From: Escherichia phage vB_EcoM-S1P5QW
Sequence record: OL956808.1
DNA: 64,000 nt
Direction: 5' to 3' (one strand)
Part shown: in pieces, positions 57,963 to 64,000 of the stretch
How positions within the stretch are numbered: position 1 is the first letter of the stretch
How the letters are laid out: the number at the start of each line of letters is the position of its first letter
The notes under the pieces: model-generated
Database searches by the model: none
What the model saw: the letters and a program-made list of their open reading frames with translations, nothing else
Told to the model about the DNA's origin: nothing
Translations under genes and position numbers: made by a program

Positions 57963-58424
57963 ATGATTATTAATGAAAACTCTTGGCATTATAAATTATT
58001 CAAATTGTTTAACGACGAATGGCAACGACCTAAGACACTATGCGCATATTTTTGGTCTATTGCCATTCCTACATTTTTCGTTTCTATTTTTGGATGTGCT
58101 ATACTCGTAGGGCTAACAATTATTTGTGCAGAAAGCCTACAACGTTGGCTTATTTTCGGTAGTTTATGGACTCTTCTTCCATCGGCATTTATACTTGCAC
58201 TTTTGGTTGTTTTACTTATTATCGGTTCATTTGTTATTCCTGCACATTTGCGTGAAAAATATAAAGATTATAAATGGAAAAAGGATTATGCTTTACGCGT
58301 AGAAAATATTGATAGGGCGTATAAAGGTTTACCTCCTATTCAACCCAAGAAATCGATTATCGTTGAATTTTTAAAAGCTCGTAAAGCTAAAGTATGTCCT
58401 GTTATTGAATATAAGGCTGAATGA
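57963..58424 (+). CDS. polytopic membrane protein
   Basis: 153 aa with 2-3 hydrophobic helices; translationally coupled to the downstream nucleotidyltransferase. Confidence 0.5.
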   Translation: MIINENSWHYKLFKLFNDEWQRPKTLCAYFWSIAIPTFFVSIFGCAILVGLTIICAESLQRWLIFGSLWTLLPSAFILALLVVLLIIGSFVIPAHLREKYKDYKWKKDYALRVENIDRAYKGLPPIQPKKSIIVEFLKARKAKVCPVIEYKAE

Positions 58425-59434
58425 TGAAAACAGTAATGAAAAGCTATTTTGGTAGTCATCTTTATGGAACTTCTACCCCAGAATCTGATGTAGATTTTAA
58501 AGAAATCTTTGTTCCTCCTGCTCGCGATATTCTTATCGGAAATGTCAAAGAGCACATGAGTAAAAACACTAACAACACATCATCTAAAAACACTAAAGAT
58601 GATATTGACCATGAACTATACAGTCTTAAATATTTCTTTAAATTAGCAGCAGATGGTGAAACTGTAGCATTGGATATGCTTCACACTCCACCTGAATTAG
58701 TGGTTAAATCTGATTTGCCTGATGTGTGGAAGTTTATTCAAGACAACCGTTCTCGTTTTTATACGACTAACATGAAATCATATTTAGGATATGTTCGCAA
58801 GCAAGCTTCTAAATACGGTGTCAAGGGTTCTCGTTTGGCTGCATTACGTGATGTATTGAAAGTAGTTAATCAAATCCCTGAGCAATGGGTTGATTACCAA
58901 GAAGACGGTTCCATTAAGCATCGTCGAACTAAAGTTGAAGATATTAAGCATCGTCTTCCAGAGAACGAATTCTGTGAATGGGTATTCCATAATCATGAGA
59001 AAACAGGTCCACAAACGTTCTACACTGTGTTGGGTCGTAAATATCAAACAACGCTTTCTCTCATTGAGCTTAAGCAGTCTTTGAATAAACTTGATGCTGA
59101 ATACGGCGAACGTGCTCGTAAGGCTGAAGCGAATGAGGGCATTGACTGGAAAGCTCTGAGTCATGCTTGCCGTGGTGGACTCCAACTATTGGAAATTTAC
59201 AAAACTGGTGACTTAGTCTATCCACTTCAAGATGCTCCATTTATTCTTGACGTGAAGTTGGGTAAGCATCCATTTAAAACGGTTCAAGAGTTTTTAGAAG
59301 ATGTGGTCGATCAAGTAGAAGCAGCATCTACTGAAGCTTCTAAGAACGGTATGCAGCAAAAAGTAGACATGAGTTTCTGGGATGACTTCCTTGAGAAGGT
59401 GTATCTCGAAAACCATCGAAGTTATTATAAATGA
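58421..59434 (+). CDS. Pol-beta superfamily nucleotidyltransferase-like protein
   Basis: 337 aa; N-terminal signature FGSHLYGTSTPESDVDF (G[GS]x9-13DxD) plus downstream acidic ALDMLH; ATGA overlap with upstream gene; terminator after stop. Confidence 0.6.
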   Translation: MMKTVMKSYFGSHLYGTSTPESDVDFKEIFVPPARDILIGNVKEHMSKNTNNTSSKNTKDDIDHELYSLKYFFKLAADGETVALDMLHTPPELVVKSDLPDVWKFIQDNRSRFYTTNMKSYLGYVRKQASKYGVKGSRLAALRDVLKVVNQIPEQWVDYQEDGSIKHRRTKVEDIKHRLPENEFCEWVFHNHEKTGPQTFYTVLGRKYQTTLSLIELKQSLNKLDAEYGERARKAEANEGIDWKALSHACRGGLQLLEIYKTGDLVYPLQDAPFILDVKLGKHPFKTVQEFLEDVVDQVEAASTEASKNGMQQKVDMSFWDDFLEKVYLENHRSYYK

Positions 59435-59461
59435 TAGGGAGCCTTCGGGCTCCCTTTTTTA
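59433..59461 (+). terminator. intrinsic terminator after the nucleotidyltransferase gene
   Basis: Hairpin gggagcc-ttcg-ggctccc followed by TTTTTT. Confidence 0.7.
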
Positions 59462-59484
59462 TTTCAAAAATTTTTCACAAAGTT

Positions 59485-59517
59485 GTTTACAAGCATAAAG
59501 CTTTATGGTACTATACA
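59485..59517 (+). promoter_or_regulatory. early promoter with stem-loop
   Basis: GTTTAC; inverted repeat cataaag/ctttatg in spacer; -10 tggTACTATacaactatcaact. Confidence 0.55.
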
Positions 59518-59548
59518 ACTATCAACTGATACGGATTTGGAGAATAAA

Positions 59549-60517
59549 ATGAAAACTGTAACTATCAATAAGGGTATCTACTTCGGTAAAGAAATCTCTG
59601 GAACTTTTGAGCTCTTAGGCGAATGGTTCCCAGATAATGCTCCGGTGGATGCACAAGGAGATGGTAAAGTTTTTGTTGAAATTGACGGTAAGCGTCGCGG
59701 TGTTTGGGTTTACAAATCAGACATTTCATATGATGGTGTAAAAGTTGAAGAAGTTAAAGAATCATATGAAGATATGAAAACCCGCATTAATAAAAGATTT
59801 AATGTTATGGGAATGATGACGAATGGTATTATTAACGGAAACATTCGTTCATTAATTATCTCTGGTGCGGCGGGTATTGGTAAAACGTATTCTTTAGATA
59901 AAGCTTTAAATAAAGCAAATGATATTGGATACATTGAATATAAAAGCATTAACGGTAAAATCTCCGGTATCGGTCTTTATGAACAACTTTGGAATAATCG
60001 TGAAGAGAATTCTGTCCTTTTGATTGATGATGTGGATGTTTTCTCTGATATGGACATTCTTAATCTTCTAAAAGCTGCTCTGGACACTGGAGAGACCCGT
60101 AAAGTCTGCTGGAGCACTGCATCTTCTTACTTAGAAGAAAAAGGCATTGAGCGTGAGTTTGAATTTAAAGGAACGATTGTTTTTATCACAAACGTTGACA
60201 TTGACCGCGAATTAGACCGTGGTACTAAACTTGCTCCACATTTACAAGCATTAGTGTCCCGCTCAGTTTATTTGGATTTGGGTGTTCACACTAATGAAGA
60301 AATTATGGTCAGGGTTGAAGATGTTATTCTTTCAACTGACATGATGCAAAAGCGCGGTCTTTCTGATGAAGAAACTTATAAAGCATTATCATGGATGAAA
60401 GTCAATGTTAATCGTTTACGCAATGTTTCACTGCGTACTGCTCTTTATCTTGCTGACTTTATTATGACCGACAAAAACGGTTGGGAAGAAATTGCTGAGG
60501 TTACTCTTCTGAAATAA
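59549..60517 (+). CDS. P-loop ATPase (AAA-like)
   Basis: Track ORF starts at TTG inside promoter; ATG at 59549 with ggaga RBS gives 322 aa; Walker A GAAGIGKT, Walker B VLLIDDVD. Confidence 0.6.
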   Translation: MKTVTINKGIYFGKEISGTFELLGEWFPDNAPVDAQGDGKVFVEIDGKRRGVWVYKSDISYDGVKVEEVKESYEDMKTRINKRFNVMGMMTNGIINGNIRSLIISGAAGIGKTYSLDKALNKANDIGYIEYKSINGKISGIGLYEQLWNNREENSVLLIDDVDVFSDMDILNLLKAALDTGETRKVCWSTASSYLEEKGIEREFEFKGTIVFITNVDIDRELDRGTKLAPHLQALVSRSVYLDLGVHTNEEIMVRVEDVILSTDMMQKRGLSDEETYKALSWMKVNVNRLRNVSLRTALYLADFIMTDKNGWEEIAEVTLLK

Positions 60518-60618
60518 TTCATAAGAGGACTTCTATGACAAAAAGGCAGTTCAGAAATAGATTATATGGACTGCCATTAAAAAGATGACTAGAATTAAAC
60601 TGGTGAATGGAGGTAGTG

Positions 60619-60921
60619 ATGTTATACTCAAAGGCTCGTGAAATTTATGAAACTAAAATTAAAGACGCGGTTCATCAGTTCGCAACGACAATGCGTTGGA
60701 CAAATGATTGGGAGTATTCAAAAAATCATAAGAAGCCCTTGGTGACAAGAAAGGCTCATATGTTAGTGTTAATAGACCGTGAGCAGATTAAAGCCCGAGA
60801 AGCCCTCCAGAATCATAAAAAGGCTGCTTTTGAATGGTTTATGGATAACACTGCTCCTGAGACTAAGAAAGCAGTGAGCGCTTGGTTCAGTGGAAAAAAT
60901 TGTGAAAGAAGTTTCTTTTAG
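60619..60921 (+). CDS. hypothetical protein
   Basis: ATG at 60619 with ggaggtag RBS (100 aa); upstream ATG at 60607 is an alternative. Confidence 0.45.
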   Translation: MLYSKAREIYETKIKDAVHQFATTMRWTNDWEYSKNHKKPLVTRKAHMLVLIDREQIKAREALQNHKKAAFEWFMDNTAPETKKAVSAWFSGKNCERSFF

Positions 60922-60923
60922 TT

Positions 60924-60955
60924 GTTTACAAGACCGTTCCTCTGTGGTACTATAC
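60924..60955 (+). promoter_or_regulatory. early promoter with stem-loop
   Basis: GTTTAC; inverted repeat gttcctc/gaggaac brackets -10 tggTACTATacaactatcaact. Confidence 0.55.
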
Positions 60956-60981
60956 AACTATCAACTACGGAGGAACACAAA

Positions 60982-61509
60982 ATGAACGCTAAAGATATTT
61001 TCAACCTGGTAAATTACAACGATGGTAAATTTAAATCTGAAGCACAAAGCAAGTTCTTTAATGACATCTCAATCGGAGGTGAAATCACGGTTGATGGAGG
61101 ACAAATTTACAAATCCCGTTGGAATTGGATCGTTATTATCGATGAGATTGGTATTGTAGAAATTTACAAGAATACGAATAAAAATCGTACATTACACTGG
61201 TCTCGTGATACTAATGAACAGTACAAAAAGGATAAAGCATCTAAATTATCTCGTGTAACTCAAGAAGATATTGAGTTCATCAAGAAAGATATTTTGATGT
61301 ATGATAACTTAATTGCTGAAGAGCAAGCTGTTATTGATAAATTTGACGAGATTAAAGCTTCTCGTGAAATTCCTGATTTTATGAAAGAATCAGTAAATGA
61401 ACGATACACTCTCATTTCAGAGCGTATTGAAACTTACAAAAAGCAAAGAGCTGAACGCCAGAATACTCTTCGGAAGTTTGAAGAACGGTTAAAGACGGTA
61501 CTCGCATAA
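60982..61509 (+). CDS. hypothetical protein
   Basis: Track ORF starts at TTG inside promoter; ATG at 60982 with ggagga RBS gives 175 aa. Confidence 0.5.
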   Translation: MNAKDIFNLVNYNDGKFKSEAQSKFFNDISIGGEITVDGGQIYKSRWNWIVIIDEIGIVEIYKNTNKNRTLHWSRDTNEQYKKDKASKLSRVTQEDIEFIKKDILMYDNLIAEEQAVIDKFDEIKASREIPDFMKESVNERYTLISERIETYKKQRAERQNTLRKFEERLKTVLA

Positions 61510-61564
61510 CCGCTTTATACCAAGGATGGTATAATGGTTCTAAGCCCTTTTAATTGAGATTATT

Positions 61565-61966
61565 ATGAAACAGTTGATAATTAAAAGATTGAATTTATTG
61601 ATATGTTGTTTATGTATAGTAATTGCATATGGTTATTACGCAATTAATGATTATATGCATTATAAAGATTATGATGTTACTGTAGTTAATACCTTTACAG
61701 GAACTCAAGGAAAGGGGTCTAGTTTATCGTTTATTGCCGTATATGAACTAAATGACGGTTATAGATTTAGCGAATATATTTCACCGGAGATGTATTCTTC
61801 AATAGAAAAAGGTGATAATATTACTGTAAGTTTACGTCCTTTCGACGTAAAACAGACATTGTTTGATAATATTGTTTGGTTCTTTGGAATGGTATTAGTT
61901 CAATCTGTGTGTGGTGCTTATATAGTCTTTTCCATCATATTCTGCGTATTTAGTAAAATTGAGTGA
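61565..61966 (+). CDS. membrane protein (N- and C-terminal TM helices)
   Basis: 133 aa with hydrophobic helices at both ends. Confidence 0.5.
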   Translation: MKQLIIKRLNLLICCLCIVIAYGYYAINDYMHYKDYDVTVVNTFTGTQGKGSSLSFIAVYELNDGYRFSEYISPEMYSSIEKGDNITVSLRPFDVKQTLFDNIVWFFGMVLVQSVCGAYIVFSIIFCVFSKIE

Positions 61967-61973
61967 GGAAAAT

Positions 61974-62861
61974 ATGTCAGTAGTAATTAATAATGTCAAT
62001 GCAGTAATTAAATCTTTAGTTAATAAAAAATTGAATGAATGGACTGTACTTCGTCGTGGAGAGCCAGATAAATTTTTTCATAGATTTAACCCAACTTTGG
62101 ATTTGAATGTTATTGACAGAGATGTTCATGCTGAAATTTTAGATAAATTTAAAGTTGATATTGGGTTTGGATTAGATAAACATTTACAACGAACAAACGG
62201 GTCTGGAATGGGTTTATCTAATCGCATCATGAAAGCCCTTAATAAAATTGGAGCGTTGTCTCGTATTAACGCGAGTGAAATTCTTCGCAATTATAATAAA
62301 GGATATGACCTTTATGGTAGACTAATGCCGAAATTGTCATTCGATCAAATGATTGCGGATTTGTGGGAAAATCAACGACGATTATTAGCATTAGGCGCTC
62401 GATTAGCTAAAGGTCTAGATAAACAAATGATTTTTAAGACCAATAATACAGAAGACCTTAAATGCTTTAAATTTAGTATTCGCGGCGATGATTATTATAT
62501 CAGAGCTCGCTCTACAGATTATGTTAATATGGGGCATCATCTCTGTTTAGCTTTTGAAGTTTTAAAAGAAGCTGGAACGTTAGAATATTCATCTGGTGCT
62601 AAATGCCCGATTGGTTCAAATTGCATTTTAATTTATCGCCCGGATGAATCCAGTTTAACTAAATTTCCTACAAAACCTGTACCAGTTCGTAGTAACGAAA
62701 AACATTCTGAACAAATTGATTATTTTAATAAGCAAATTGAAGAGCTAAATATTTCTATTCAACAATATGACGATGAAATTTTCAGACTATCTGGACTGAG
62801 TAGTAAAGCTAAATCTGAACGTGAAAAATTAATTAAAATTGTTGATTTACTTAAATCTTAA
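61974..62861 (+). CDS. hypothetical protein
   Basis: Track ORF starts at TTG 61959; ATG at 61974 with gaggaa RBS gives 295 aa; coiled-coil-like C-terminus. Confidence 0.5.
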   Translation: MSVVINNVNAVIKSLVNKKLNEWTVLRRGEPDKFFHRFNPTLDLNVIDRDVHAEILDKFKVDIGFGLDKHLQRTNGSGMGLSNRIMKALNKIGALSRINASEILRNYNKGYDLYGRLMPKLSFDQMIADLWENQRRLLALGARLAKGLDKQMIFKTNNTEDLKCFKFSIRGDDYYIRARSTDYVNMGHHLCLAFEVLKEAGTLEYSSGAKCPIGSNCILIYRPDESSLTKFPTKPVPVRSNEKHSEQIDYFNKQIEELNISIQQYDDEIFRLSGLSSKAKSEREKLIKIVDLLKS

Positions 62862-62869
62862 GGAACACC

Positions 62870-63889
62870 ATGAAAACTCGTTCTCAAATTGAAGATATGG
62901 TTCGTAATGCCAGCTATACTCGTGATGTTATGACATTTTTGTGCCAAAATAATTTAGACCCTGATAAAGTTAATCGTGATATTCACTTTAAATATATGAA
63001 TAGCAGTGAATGGTTACGTCATTTTAGTAAAGCGGGGTATATTACACAAATGACTGCTCGTGAGCAGCTCACCGATTTCTGTAAAACTATTGATTATAAA
63101 AATCCTCTATTTGTTCAAGGTGTTGGTCAGAGTAAGGTCGATTTATCATCTGGATTTTTCAATCCAAATCATTATCGTATTGAATGGAGATTTATTGCTC
63201 TATTCCGTAAACAATTAAAGCAAATTTTGTCGACGGCTAGTCGATTAAAAGGTTCTGATATTAACTTAAAGAACCTGAAATTTGATGGTTATACTCTTCA
63301 GATGGAAGTAAGACCATTAAAAGAAAATAATAGAACTGCACGAATTAGCTTTAAACCTAATACAAAAAATTCTCTTTCAATTTGTGAATGTCTTAAATCA
63401 CAGCTGACAGAAGCATTTAAGTATATGGATGTTGTTGCTGCTGTTCAATCTAAGATTTCGCAGCATTTCGAACGATTTAAATTAGATACGACAACATATG
63501 AACTTGATATGATCGTTTCATTTAAATACGATTTTTTGAGAAAGGACGAAGTCCCGCAAGAGAAAAAGCAGGAAGTGCAAGATAACTTAAATTTATCTAA
63601 TTACTCATCAAACGATCCTAAATTTTGGATGTATAGTTCAGGTAATAAAGATGCATGGAAATTCAATAAAGTGAATTTTCTTCCTATTGAAAATCCGAGT
63701 CTTAAACCTGTTGAAAAATGGCACGCGGATGCGATTGAGAAGTCCCTTAAGGCAGTAGATGATGAACTCGTTAAAGCGACCAATGAAGTGTTAGAAGCTG
63801 AAAAGATGCTAGAAAAAGCACAAGAAAAAGTCAAAAATCTCACGAAGCAACGTTCTAAACTGAACAATGCACTAAATGCACTGAACTAG
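62870..63889 (+). CDS. hypothetical protein with coiled-coil C-terminus
   Basis: 339 aa; aggaa RBS. Confidence 0.5.
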   Translation: MKTRSQIEDMVRNASYTRDVMTFLCQNNLDPDKVNRDIHFKYMNSSEWLRHFSKAGYITQMTAREQLTDFCKTIDYKNPLFVQGVGQSKVDLSSGFFNPNHYRIEWRFIALFRKQLKQILSTASRLKGSDINLKNLKFDGYTLQMEVRPLKENNRTARISFKPNTKNSLSICECLKSQLTEAFKYMDVVAAVQSKISQHFERFKLDTTTYELDMIVSFKYDFLRKDEVPQEKKQEVQDNLNLSNYSSNDPKFWMYSSGNKDAWKFNKVNFLPIENPSLKPVEKWHADAIEKSLKAVDDELVKATNEVLEAEKMLEKAQEKVKNLTKQRSKLNNALNALN

Positions 63890-63918
63890 TTTACTTTGCC
63901 ACAAGGATGTGGTATAAT
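63889..63918 (+). promoter_or_regulatory. early promoter
   Basis: GTTTAC, palindrome ccacaaggatgtgg in spacer, -10 tggTATAAT. Confidence 0.6.
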
Positions 63919-63946
63919 GTTCTTACTTTCTACTGAGGAGATTAAT

Positions 63947-64000
63947 ATGACTCGTAACGAATATATCAAATCATTCAATAGCGTTATTGATGATAAAGCT
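63947..64000 (+). CDS. hypothetical protein (3'-truncated at window edge)
   Basis: ATG at 63947 with gaggag RBS and early promoter upstream; frame open to window end. Confidence 0.4.
   Translation, partial: MTRNEYIKSFNSVIDDKA

Follow-up and report, generated by a model that had tools for sequence, protein, structure and literature searches.

The stretch of DNA considered here, hereafter the window, comprises 64,000 nucleotides (nt) of Escherichia phage vB_EcoM-S1P5QW (sequence record OL956808.1; one strand, 5' to 3'), and two adjacent plus-strand genes close to its end, encoding proteins of 295 and 339 amino acids (aa), are, by sequence similarity and gene order, the orthologs of T4 nrdC.6 and nrdC.5. 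NrdC.5 is a counter-defence protein, whose anti-Dsr1 phenotype was obtained with the T4 allele against the Dsr1 of Escherichia coli ECOR17 and would extend to the window copy by orthology. The identities of both genes and the function of NrdC.5 are already known, the genes being catalogued and present in hundreds of genomes; what is added here is evidence for NrdC.3, NrdC.4, NrdC.5, and NrdC.6 as a single family diversifying on a counter-defence scaffold, with which nrdC.6 becomes a candidate for testing. Both proteins are probably early, non-enzymatic, oligomeric binders of host immune proteins, with NrdC.5 directed against Dsr1 and NrdC.6 against another target.

An earlier reading of the window from its letters, made with no database searches (the sequence-only reading), had described two consecutive plus-strand genes of 295 and 339 aa with good ribosome-binding sites, and both genes are confirmed, together with their Shine–Dalgarno sites, at the following positions:

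61974 (ATG) to 62861 (TAA), plus strand: coding sequence of the nrdC.6 ortholog, 295 aa, family Phage_T4_Y05B / phrog_2257.
62870 (ATG) to 63889 (TAG), plus strand: coding sequence of the nrdC.5 ortholog, 339 aa, Pfam family DUF7235.
61965-61969, plus strand: Shine–Dalgarno site GAGGA of nrdC.6, read from the sequence, 4 nt before the ATG and overlapping the stop codon of nrdC.7 (61964-61966).
62860-62864, plus strand: Shine–Dalgarno site AAGGA of nrdC.5, read from the sequence, 5 nt before the ATG and overlapping the stop codon of nrdC.6 (62859-62861).

Both are real coding genes. More than 500 phage genomes carry nrdC.6 and more than 500 carry nrdC.5, and the ratio of nonsynonymous to synonymous substitution rates (dN/dS) among seven Tequatrovirus copies stands at 0.14 in nrdC.6 and at 0.19 in nrdC.5. 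The ATG at 61974 is taken as the true start of nrdC.6 because the N-terminal MS..IN is invariant across 27 homologs, and the TTG at 61959, proposed as the start by a mechanical list of open reading frames, was rejected on the same ground. Minus-strand open reading frames within both genes, of up to 88 aa, were also rejected, as nothing supports them.

With Shigella phage Sf22 the region shares 99.5% identity, and with about 500 other Tequatrovirus genomes 90-99%; the window is assigned to Tequatrovirus on sequence similarity. Compared with the T4 map, its plus strand reads nrdC.11, nrdC.10, nrdC.9, nrdC.8, nrdC.7, nrdC.6, and nrdC.5, followed by the first part of nrdC.4, which starts at 63948 and is cut off by the window's end. 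Up to the point of a frameshift in T4, over 259 aa, the 295-aa protein shows 96.9% identity to T4 NrdC.6, and it is matched over its full length by phrog_2257 (E = 2e-152); moreover, PF26899, whose name is Phage_T4_Y05B, is precomputed on 105 of the 105 NrdC.6 homologs found, a set in which proteins 98% identical are included. The 339-aa protein shows 93.8% identity to T4 NrdC.5 over 340 aa, has its gene between nrdC.6 and nrdC.4 just as T4 does, and is matched by phrog_2351 (E = 4e-171) and by Pfam DUF7235 (PF23882; gathering score 30 bits) with 410.9 bits and E = 4.8e-123, residues 1-339 aligning with positions 1-307 of the 307 in the profile. Synteny with the nrdC-proximal open reading frames of T4, which the sequence-only reading had named as a check, was the right place to look, since sequence and gene order both identify the pair as nrdC.6 and nrdC.5. 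The absence of any assignable motif claimed in that reading holds for functional motifs, but not for the 339-aa protein as a member of DUF7235 along its whole length.

The function of NrdC.5 is known from T4. An evolved T4 clone with compensatory deletions was unable to infect E. coli ECOR17, and deletion of dsr1 in the host restored infection (PMC9391042). In addition, dsr1 on a plasmid protected MG1655 against the evolved clone, and T4 nrdC.5 provided in trans restored plating (PMC9391042; Srikant, Guegler and Laub, eLife 2022). Dsr1 is a SIR2-domain NADase, and its sensor domain, which is common to Avs7, recognises phage major capsid proteins (PMC13581612, Nature 2026). The 339-aa protein is therefore clearly homologous to a characterised T4 protein, and the description of the pair as uncharacterised fails for nrdC.5, whose T4 ortholog, 94% identical, counteracts Dsr1, and stands for nrdC.6, which no paper found in a full-text literature search mentions. 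As regards the mechanism or structure of NrdC.5, no paper was found in the literature search.

In the mechanism proposed here, the coiled coil of NrdC.5 would assemble the protein into an oligomer, its globular part would bind Dsr1 stoichiometrically and non-enzymatically, and its early production would allow Dsr1 to be blocked before the late capsid trigger appears. This proposal is suggested by the lack of a catalytic signature, the architecture of the protein, its evolutionary pattern, and the analogy with DSAD1, an anti-DSR2 protein of SPbeta-like Bacillus phages. NrdC.6 would act alike on a different host immune protein, as may be argued from common ancestry, co-transcription, dispensability, and fast evolution.

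The anatomy of both proteins is consistent with such a role. The AlphaFold2 model of NrdC.6 has a mean predicted local distance difference test score (pLDDT) of 77 and a predicted template modelling score (pTM) of 0.65, whereas that of NrdC.5 reaches an overall pLDDT of 44.8 because its alignment is shallow (17 sequences, with a mean identity of 88%). The parts that can be delimited are the following:

62214..62444, plus strand: NrdC.6 residues 81-157, the most conserved helical core (invariant columns in the 27-sequence alignment).
62445..62651, plus strand: NrdC.6 residues 158-226, a variable beta-beta-alpha-beta-beta unit (AlphaFold2).
62652..62696, plus strand: NrdC.6 residues 227-241, a disordered linker (pLDDT <50; indels in the alignment).
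62697..62855, plus strand: NrdC.6 residues 242-294, a C-terminal coiled-coil-like helical hairpin (AlphaFold2 helices 242-271 and 277-294).
63533..63706, plus strand: NrdC.5 residues ~222-279, a low-complexity linker (indels, NL repeats; pLDDT ~27-42).
63707..63883, plus strand: NrdC.5 residues 280-338, a C-terminal coiled-coil helix of 59 residues (pLDDT 77-92, the sole confident part of the model).

In NrdC.6, a helical N-terminus, variable according to the alignment and the model, precedes the core, which carries the motifs G.LSR.NA..IL..YNKGYDLYGR and NQRRLLALGARLA.G.DKQM.FKTN and is predicted to fold into helices 81-91, 94-106, 123-132, and 134-144 with a pLDDT of 88-92. This core aligns with residues 48-135 of NrdC.5 and with the KAN family, a bridging family made up of single-copy relatives from Kanagawavirus and Mosugukvirus. 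The following unit is predicted to consist of strands 165-170 and 173-178, helix 186-199, and strands 204-209 and 217-221. The linker ends in a conserved PVPVRSNEKH, in which S240, N241, and K243 are invariant in the alignment, and the C-terminal hairpin is highly conserved (DDEIFRL, K.ER, LLK). In NrdC.5, the order predicted in the low-confidence model is the same as in NrdC.6, namely a long helix, strands, a helix, a strand, an indel-rich linker, which ends in a conserved KPVEKWH, and a coiled coil that is kept down to relatives 40% identical and below.

The Lys/Glu-rich, coiled-coil-like C-termini noticed in the sequence-only reading are borne out by the AlphaFold2 helices, by the heptad pattern, and by a raised content of the two residues. 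In a single heptad register, 80% of the a/d positions are hydrophobic in the NrdC.6 helices against 36% overall, and 88% against 41% in the NrdC.5 helix 280-338; Lys plus Glu amount to 26% of the C-terminal helices of NrdC.6 against 15% of the whole protein, and to 30% against 18% in NrdC.5. Both C-termini are, as modelled, long helices with continuous hydrophobic a/d heptads and are in that sense predicted coiled coils.

The search for relatives of NrdC.5 was of limited yield. An exhaustive hidden Markov model search gave 13 matches, among which the informative distant relatives are just P0166 and P0169, while P0174 was rejected as a spurious repeat protein; a second, word-indexed search with the NrdC.5 alignment provided no further homologs, and Foldseek with the NrdC.5 model (pLDDT 45) returned a single ortholog and was uninformative. 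A protein of 173 aa on a metagenomic contig of 803 nt (P0168, L023) joins an unrelated N-terminus to 56 C-terminal residues that differ by one substitution from the window NrdC.5; it may represent a real module swap or an assembly chimera, and it was set aside on account of the shortness of the contig.

The relationship between both proteins becomes apparent when the whole tandem array is considered. T4 NrdC.3, NrdC.4, NrdC.5, and NrdC.6 have similar C-terminal tails, and short motifs recur in them in the same order. Profile–profile comparisons with hhalign, for which alignments were built from 13 IMG/VR loci plus T4 and Bas44, gave the following probabilities and E-values:

NrdC.3 against NrdC.4: 98.8%, E 1e-15.
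NrdC.5 against NrdC.3 and NrdC.4 merged: 97.8%, E 6e-12, 301 columns.
KAN against NrdC.6: 97.5%, E 3e-11, 265 columns.
KAN against NrdC.5: 96.5%, E 9e-10, 252 columns.
NrdC.6 plus KAN against NrdC.3, NrdC.4, and NrdC.5: 97.1%, E 1.6e-10.

Moreover, the NrdC.3/NrdC.4 profile matched NrdC.6 plus KAN with 91% probability. In the controls, reversed KAN alignments matched nothing, and local scores stayed at 9-20 with 20 column-shuffled KAN alignments, the real ones scoring 49.5 and 71.6. With these negative controls, significant profile similarity over most of the length is found across NrdC.3, NrdC.4, NrdC.5, and NrdC.6, in agreement with their treatment as a superfamily, the architecture of which comprises a helical N-terminus, a small alpha/beta unit, a disordered linker, and a coiled coil. 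For NrdC.6 and KAN, structural comparison points in the same direction: in BFVD, a collection of predicted viral structures, the NrdC.6 model finds full-length matches with template modelling (TM) scores of 0.42-0.50 and E = 4e-7 to 3e-4, the targets being T4-like phage proteins of 304-335 aa, and among its matches are, again over the full length, the KAN proteins from PM2 and IME523 (TM 0.49-0.50, E = 4e-7 to 9e-7). PM2_092, from the Mosugukvirus/Kanagawavirus group, and QEA10564 of IME523 are each the sole large gene directly upstream of nrdC.2. NrdC.3, NrdC.4, and NrdC.5 are, on profile similarity, homologous. The membership of NrdC.6, which joins the family only through the KAN bridge, is supported, not proven, and a common ancestry of NrdC.5 and NrdC.6 seems very probable from these profiles.

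The number of family members varies among genera. Tequatrovirus has four (NrdC.3 to NrdC.6), Kanagawavirus and Mosugukvirus have one (L016-L021), and Dhakavirus-/Gaprivervirus-like phages (IMG/VR L007-L015) have three, lacking NrdC.3 and also NrdC.7. The order NrdC.6–NrdC.5–NrdC.4 is kept in Tequatrovirus, in the Dhakavirus-/Gaprivervirus-like phages, and in one divergent metagenomic phage, and the protein at the NrdC.5 position in the Dhakavirus-/Gaprivervirus-like phages is only 22-28% identical to that of T4. In nonsynonymous divergence (dN), NrdC.3 to NrdC.6 exceed NrdC.8, NrdC.10, and NrdC by a factor of 5-10, and their dN/dS is 0.14-0.29.

Rearrangements are also seen within the array. 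Phage Sf22 (L022 1581-2810) encodes a NrdC.6 of 409 aa in which residues 149-262 (342 base pairs, bp) are repeated exactly, in tandem and in frame, and the NrdC.6 of phage Sf25 (P0001), 378 aa long, repeats residues 176-258 (249 bp) in the same manner. The two duplications have different boundaries, each extends over the alpha/beta unit and the linker into the beginning of the coiled coil, and the window copy is unduplicated; either recent adaptation or faulty assembly may account for them. In addition, a protein of 299 aa from a 167-kb phage contig (P0161) joins residues ~145-272 of NrdC.5 to the C-terminal half of NrdC.3 at a short KVN/NVN-MLFKH junction common to both, which implies, as far as its sequence goes, a deletion that would have removed nrdC.4 and fused two paralogs.

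The T4 reference itself departs from most relatives. In NC_000866, nrdC.6 (L001 10067-10894, minus strand) carries a deletion of 1 nt near codon 259 when compared with 62745-62861 of the window, the reference reading GAGCT-GATATT where the window has GAGCTAAATATT. As annotated in the reference, NrdC.6 ends at 275 aa, with 16 out-of-frame residues in place of the coiled-coil tail, and a 70-nt "gap" separates it from nrdC.5; the tail is intact in another frame, and the window copy is in frame, as are most relatives. In the T4 annotation used in the preprint of HIDEN-SEQ, a transposon screen, nrdC.6 is 891 nt long. The frameshift reflects either an error in sequencing or a mutation specific to that lineage.

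Searches for known families and folds did not point to an enzyme. No enzyme family matched either protein in Pfam and NCBIfam scans, PADLOC gave no defence-system family for either at E up to 0.1, and PDB sequence searches with the NrdC.5 and NrdC.6 profiles at E up to 1 found no solved relative. Foldseek and HHpred had been suggested in the sequence-only reading as further checks; Foldseek with the NrdC.6 model found nothing significant in the PDB (best E 0.018, TM <0.26), and profile–profile comparison with hhalign links the paralogs. Designed proteins and H-NOX domains, which Foldseek matched weakly, were discarded (TM <0.26), and Pfam matches to Sec16, DUF4164, CENP-F, AAA_23, and Cas6b_C, all below cut-offs and several of them in the coiled coil, were rejected as compositional. 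In GenBank and UniRef, many homologs of NrdC.4, NrdC.5, NrdC.6, and NrdC.7 are called "thioredoxin" or "Mur ligase domain-containing protein". No Mur ligase domain was detected in the NrdC.6 and NrdC.5 orthologs scanned, and the thioredoxin label was rejected, since neither Pfam nor NCBIfam finds such a domain and neither translation contains CxxC; this label looks propagated because the gene names read nrdC.x.

Several observations weigh against the proposal that both proteins are binders of host immune proteins with a common origin. NrdC.5 and NrdC.6 compared directly are not significantly similar (BLASTP E = 0.24; hhalign probability <1%), and, once the coiled coil is removed, the match between KAN and NrdC.5 drops to 4.8% and that between NrdC.4 and NrdC.5 to 56.7%, whereas KAN against NrdC.6 stays at 87.7%. 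The globular fold of NrdC.5 is argued solely from sequence profiles, and the window NrdC.5 departs from that of T4 at ~6% of residues, which matters given that counter-defence proteins can be allele-specific. In addition, nrdC.6 and nrdC.5 are absent from the new anti-defence genes that HIDEN-SEQ named against six systems. Finally, nrdC.6 is frameshifted in the T4 reference and is therefore dispensable in at least one laboratory lineage.

For NrdC.6, an alternative is that it takes no part in anti-defence and has only its ancestry in common with NrdC.5; it would then operate as an accessory factor in host takeover or regulation, such as an early protein that binds nucleic acids or other proteins. 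Such a role would agree with the lack of a reported phenotype, with the non-significant values for nrdC.6 in the HIDEN-SEQ comparisons (q = 0.8-1.0 in those covered), and with the slower evolution of core 81-157 relative to the rest of the protein; within this core, G.LSR.NA..IL resembles a helix-turn-helix, as judged by eye only. Nevertheless, NrdC.6 belongs to an early unit in which two adjacent genes have been reported to act against defences, is linked by homology, via KAN, with the NrdC.5 lineage, and is non-essential and fast-evolving, and the Foldseek search against the PDB yielded no significant match to a DNA-binding or any other fold, so that we regard this alternative as rather unlikely, albeit the best placed of those considered.

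It is also conceivable that NrdC.6 and NrdC.5, perhaps with NrdC.4 and NrdC.3, form one hetero-oligomeric complex through their related coiled coils. The C-terminal modules are the most similar parts between the families, the gene order is kept from Tequatrovirus to the Dhakavirus-/Gaprivervirus-like phages and the divergent metagenomic phage, and the gaps of 7-8 nt, with Shine–Dalgarno sites overlapping stops, suggest coupled translation. However, NrdC.5 from a plasmid was sufficient to restore infection, although the nrdC.6 status of that clone is not stated in the text or supplements of PMC9391042. Moreover, Kanagawavirus and Mosugukvirus carry a single family member, NrdC.3 is missing from the Dhakavirus-/Gaprivervirus-like phages, and the frameshift leaves NrdC.6 of the T4 reference without a coiled coil, all of which makes such a complex improbable in our estimation.

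The least probable alternative, in which NrdC.5 would defeat Dsr1 indirectly by masking or delaying the capsid trigger, altering NAD+ metabolism, or modifying a host factor, possibly as an unrecognised enzyme, is compatible with the purely genetic nature of the published evidence (PMC9391042), with the rebuilding of NAD+ by other phages against NAD+-depleting systems (NARP1, NARP2, and NARP3), and with the invariance of GVGQ, EWRFI, KNSLS, and WHA across the NrdC.5 family, but it is countered by the lack of a matching enzyme family or solved structure in Pfam, NCBIfam, and the PDB, by the linker, long coiled coil, and rapid divergence, which fit a binding protein better than an enzyme, and by DSAD1, the one structurally studied case, which binds the defence protein DSR2 directly according to published abstracts.

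Direct binding of immune proteins is the preferred reading, and it can be extended, tentatively and with greater doubt than for the pair itself, to NrdC.3 to NrdC.6 and their single-copy relatives as modular immune-sensor blockers, in which the coiled-coil tail would oligomerise and the diversifying head would set the target. If this were true, each paralog would hit a different immune protein, for instance a different member of the large group of proteins with a Dsr1/Avs7-type capsid sensor, NrdC.6 would be a new anti-defence protein, and the Sf22 and Sf25 duplications would be recent adaptive changes.

The transcription context points to early expression. Three promoter-like sites were found around the genes:

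59483-59530, plus strand: promoter-like block before nrdC.10 (alignment with the other two sites).
60925..60953 (block 60922-60970), plus strand: T4-early-type promoter-like site upstream of nrdC.8 (promoter scan).
63890..63918 (block 63887-63925), plus strand: T4-early-type promoter-like site in the gap between nrdC.5 and nrdC.4 (TTTACT, 17 nt, TATAAT, with TG).

The three blocks, which precede nrdC.10, nrdC.8, and nrdC.4, have in common GTTTAC, about 17 nt, and TGTGGTA.TA. Those of nrdC.10 and nrdC.8 are near-identical over about 45 nt, and for this reason the TTG-start open reading frames at 59483 and 60922 share the peptide GTIQLST; the N-terminal extensions from both TTG codons are not real coding sequence. 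A scan between the 60925 site and 63890 revealed no convincing plus-strand terminator, and the intergenic gaps are of 7-8 nt, with Shine–Dalgarno sites that overlap the preceding stops. Given the flanking early-type sites and no terminator between them, nrdC.8, nrdC.7, nrdC.6, and nrdC.5 probably constitute one early transcription unit, with the 60925 site as its predicted start and the 63890 site as its predicted downstream end. Further upstream, directly after nrdC.11, a hairpin at 59436-59455 has a perfect GC-rich stem of 8 bp (AGGGAGCC TTCG GGCTCCCT) followed by a T run and is likely an intrinsic terminator. The only RNA feature in an Rfam scan of 59000-64000, a sub-threshold L20_leader (26.9 bits against a gathering score of 58.7), overlaps there and is probably spurious.

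As for the neighbouring genes, NrdC.11 (337 aa, 58421-59434, plus strand) contains an RlaP-type nucleotidyltransferase domain (E = 2e-11), and NrdC.10 (322 aa, 59549-60517, plus strand) shows sub-threshold matches to AAA and STAND-type NTPase models. The sequence-only reading had considered the pair the largest unannotated proteins of the accessory region, which is roughly right, as the only plus-strand early genes of similar size are those of NrdC.11 and NrdC.10, both with recognisable domains. The nrdC.8 ortholog (60982-61509, plus strand) encodes 175 aa, is 98.9% identical to that of T4, and has no match in the Pfam copy used; bas37_0203 of phage Bas37 (528 nt), reported as an inhibitor of Druantia III, is a candidate nrdC.8 ortholog by gene size and order only. 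In addition, gp49.2 inhibits OLD (PMC13096335) and nrdC.1 has been reported as a Septu inhibitor. In the HIDEN-SEQ transposon screen, nrdC.6 and nrdC.5 were non-essential in T4 and Bas37 on E. coli K-12.

In terms of annotation, the pair should read NrdC.6 and NrdC.5 (anti-Dsr1 counter-defence, DUF7235), and both "hypothetical" and the wrong "thioredoxin" should be dropped. More broadly, NrdC.5, the sole member with a known function, belongs to an array of distant tandem paralogs in a region whose neighbours have reported anti-defence roles, and nrdC.3, nrdC.4, and nrdC.6 thereby gain a concrete anti-defence hypothesis that is cheap to test. The array suggests that T4-like phages broaden their range of counter-defences through duplication and diversification of a single scaffold.

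Compared with known systems, the closest counterparts are those of T4 itself. The window ortholog of T4 NrdC.5 (UniProt Y05A) has the same length, the same position between nrdC.6 and nrdC.4, and the same Pfam family, but it differs at ~6% of residues, with the substitutions concentrated close to the N-terminus, in the linker, and inside the coiled coil; that of T4 NrdC.6 (UniProt Y05B) also lies at the same position. T4 NrdC.3 and NrdC.4, already merged in Pfam as Phage_T4_Y04OP, lie next to the pair in tandem and share its size range and architecture, whereas their Pfam family is separate from those of NrdC.5 and NrdC.6 and pairwise identity is below BLAST detection. The KAN relatives likewise share this architecture, belong to the same nrdC cluster, and show profile similarity to NrdC.5 as well as to NrdC.6; nevertheless, they occur in one copy instead of three or four and are 12-17% identical to NrdC.6. 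Outside this group, DSAD1 was recovered neither with the two profiles (PDB, E up to 1) nor in the Foldseek PDB search with the NrdC.6 model. According to published abstracts, it differs from NrdC.5 in its target, which is DSR2 rather than Dsr1, in the trigger, which is the tail tube rather than the capsid, and in the phage lineage, and it is nonetheless a functional analogue of NrdC.5, both proteins disarming a sirtuin that senses a late structural protein of the phage.

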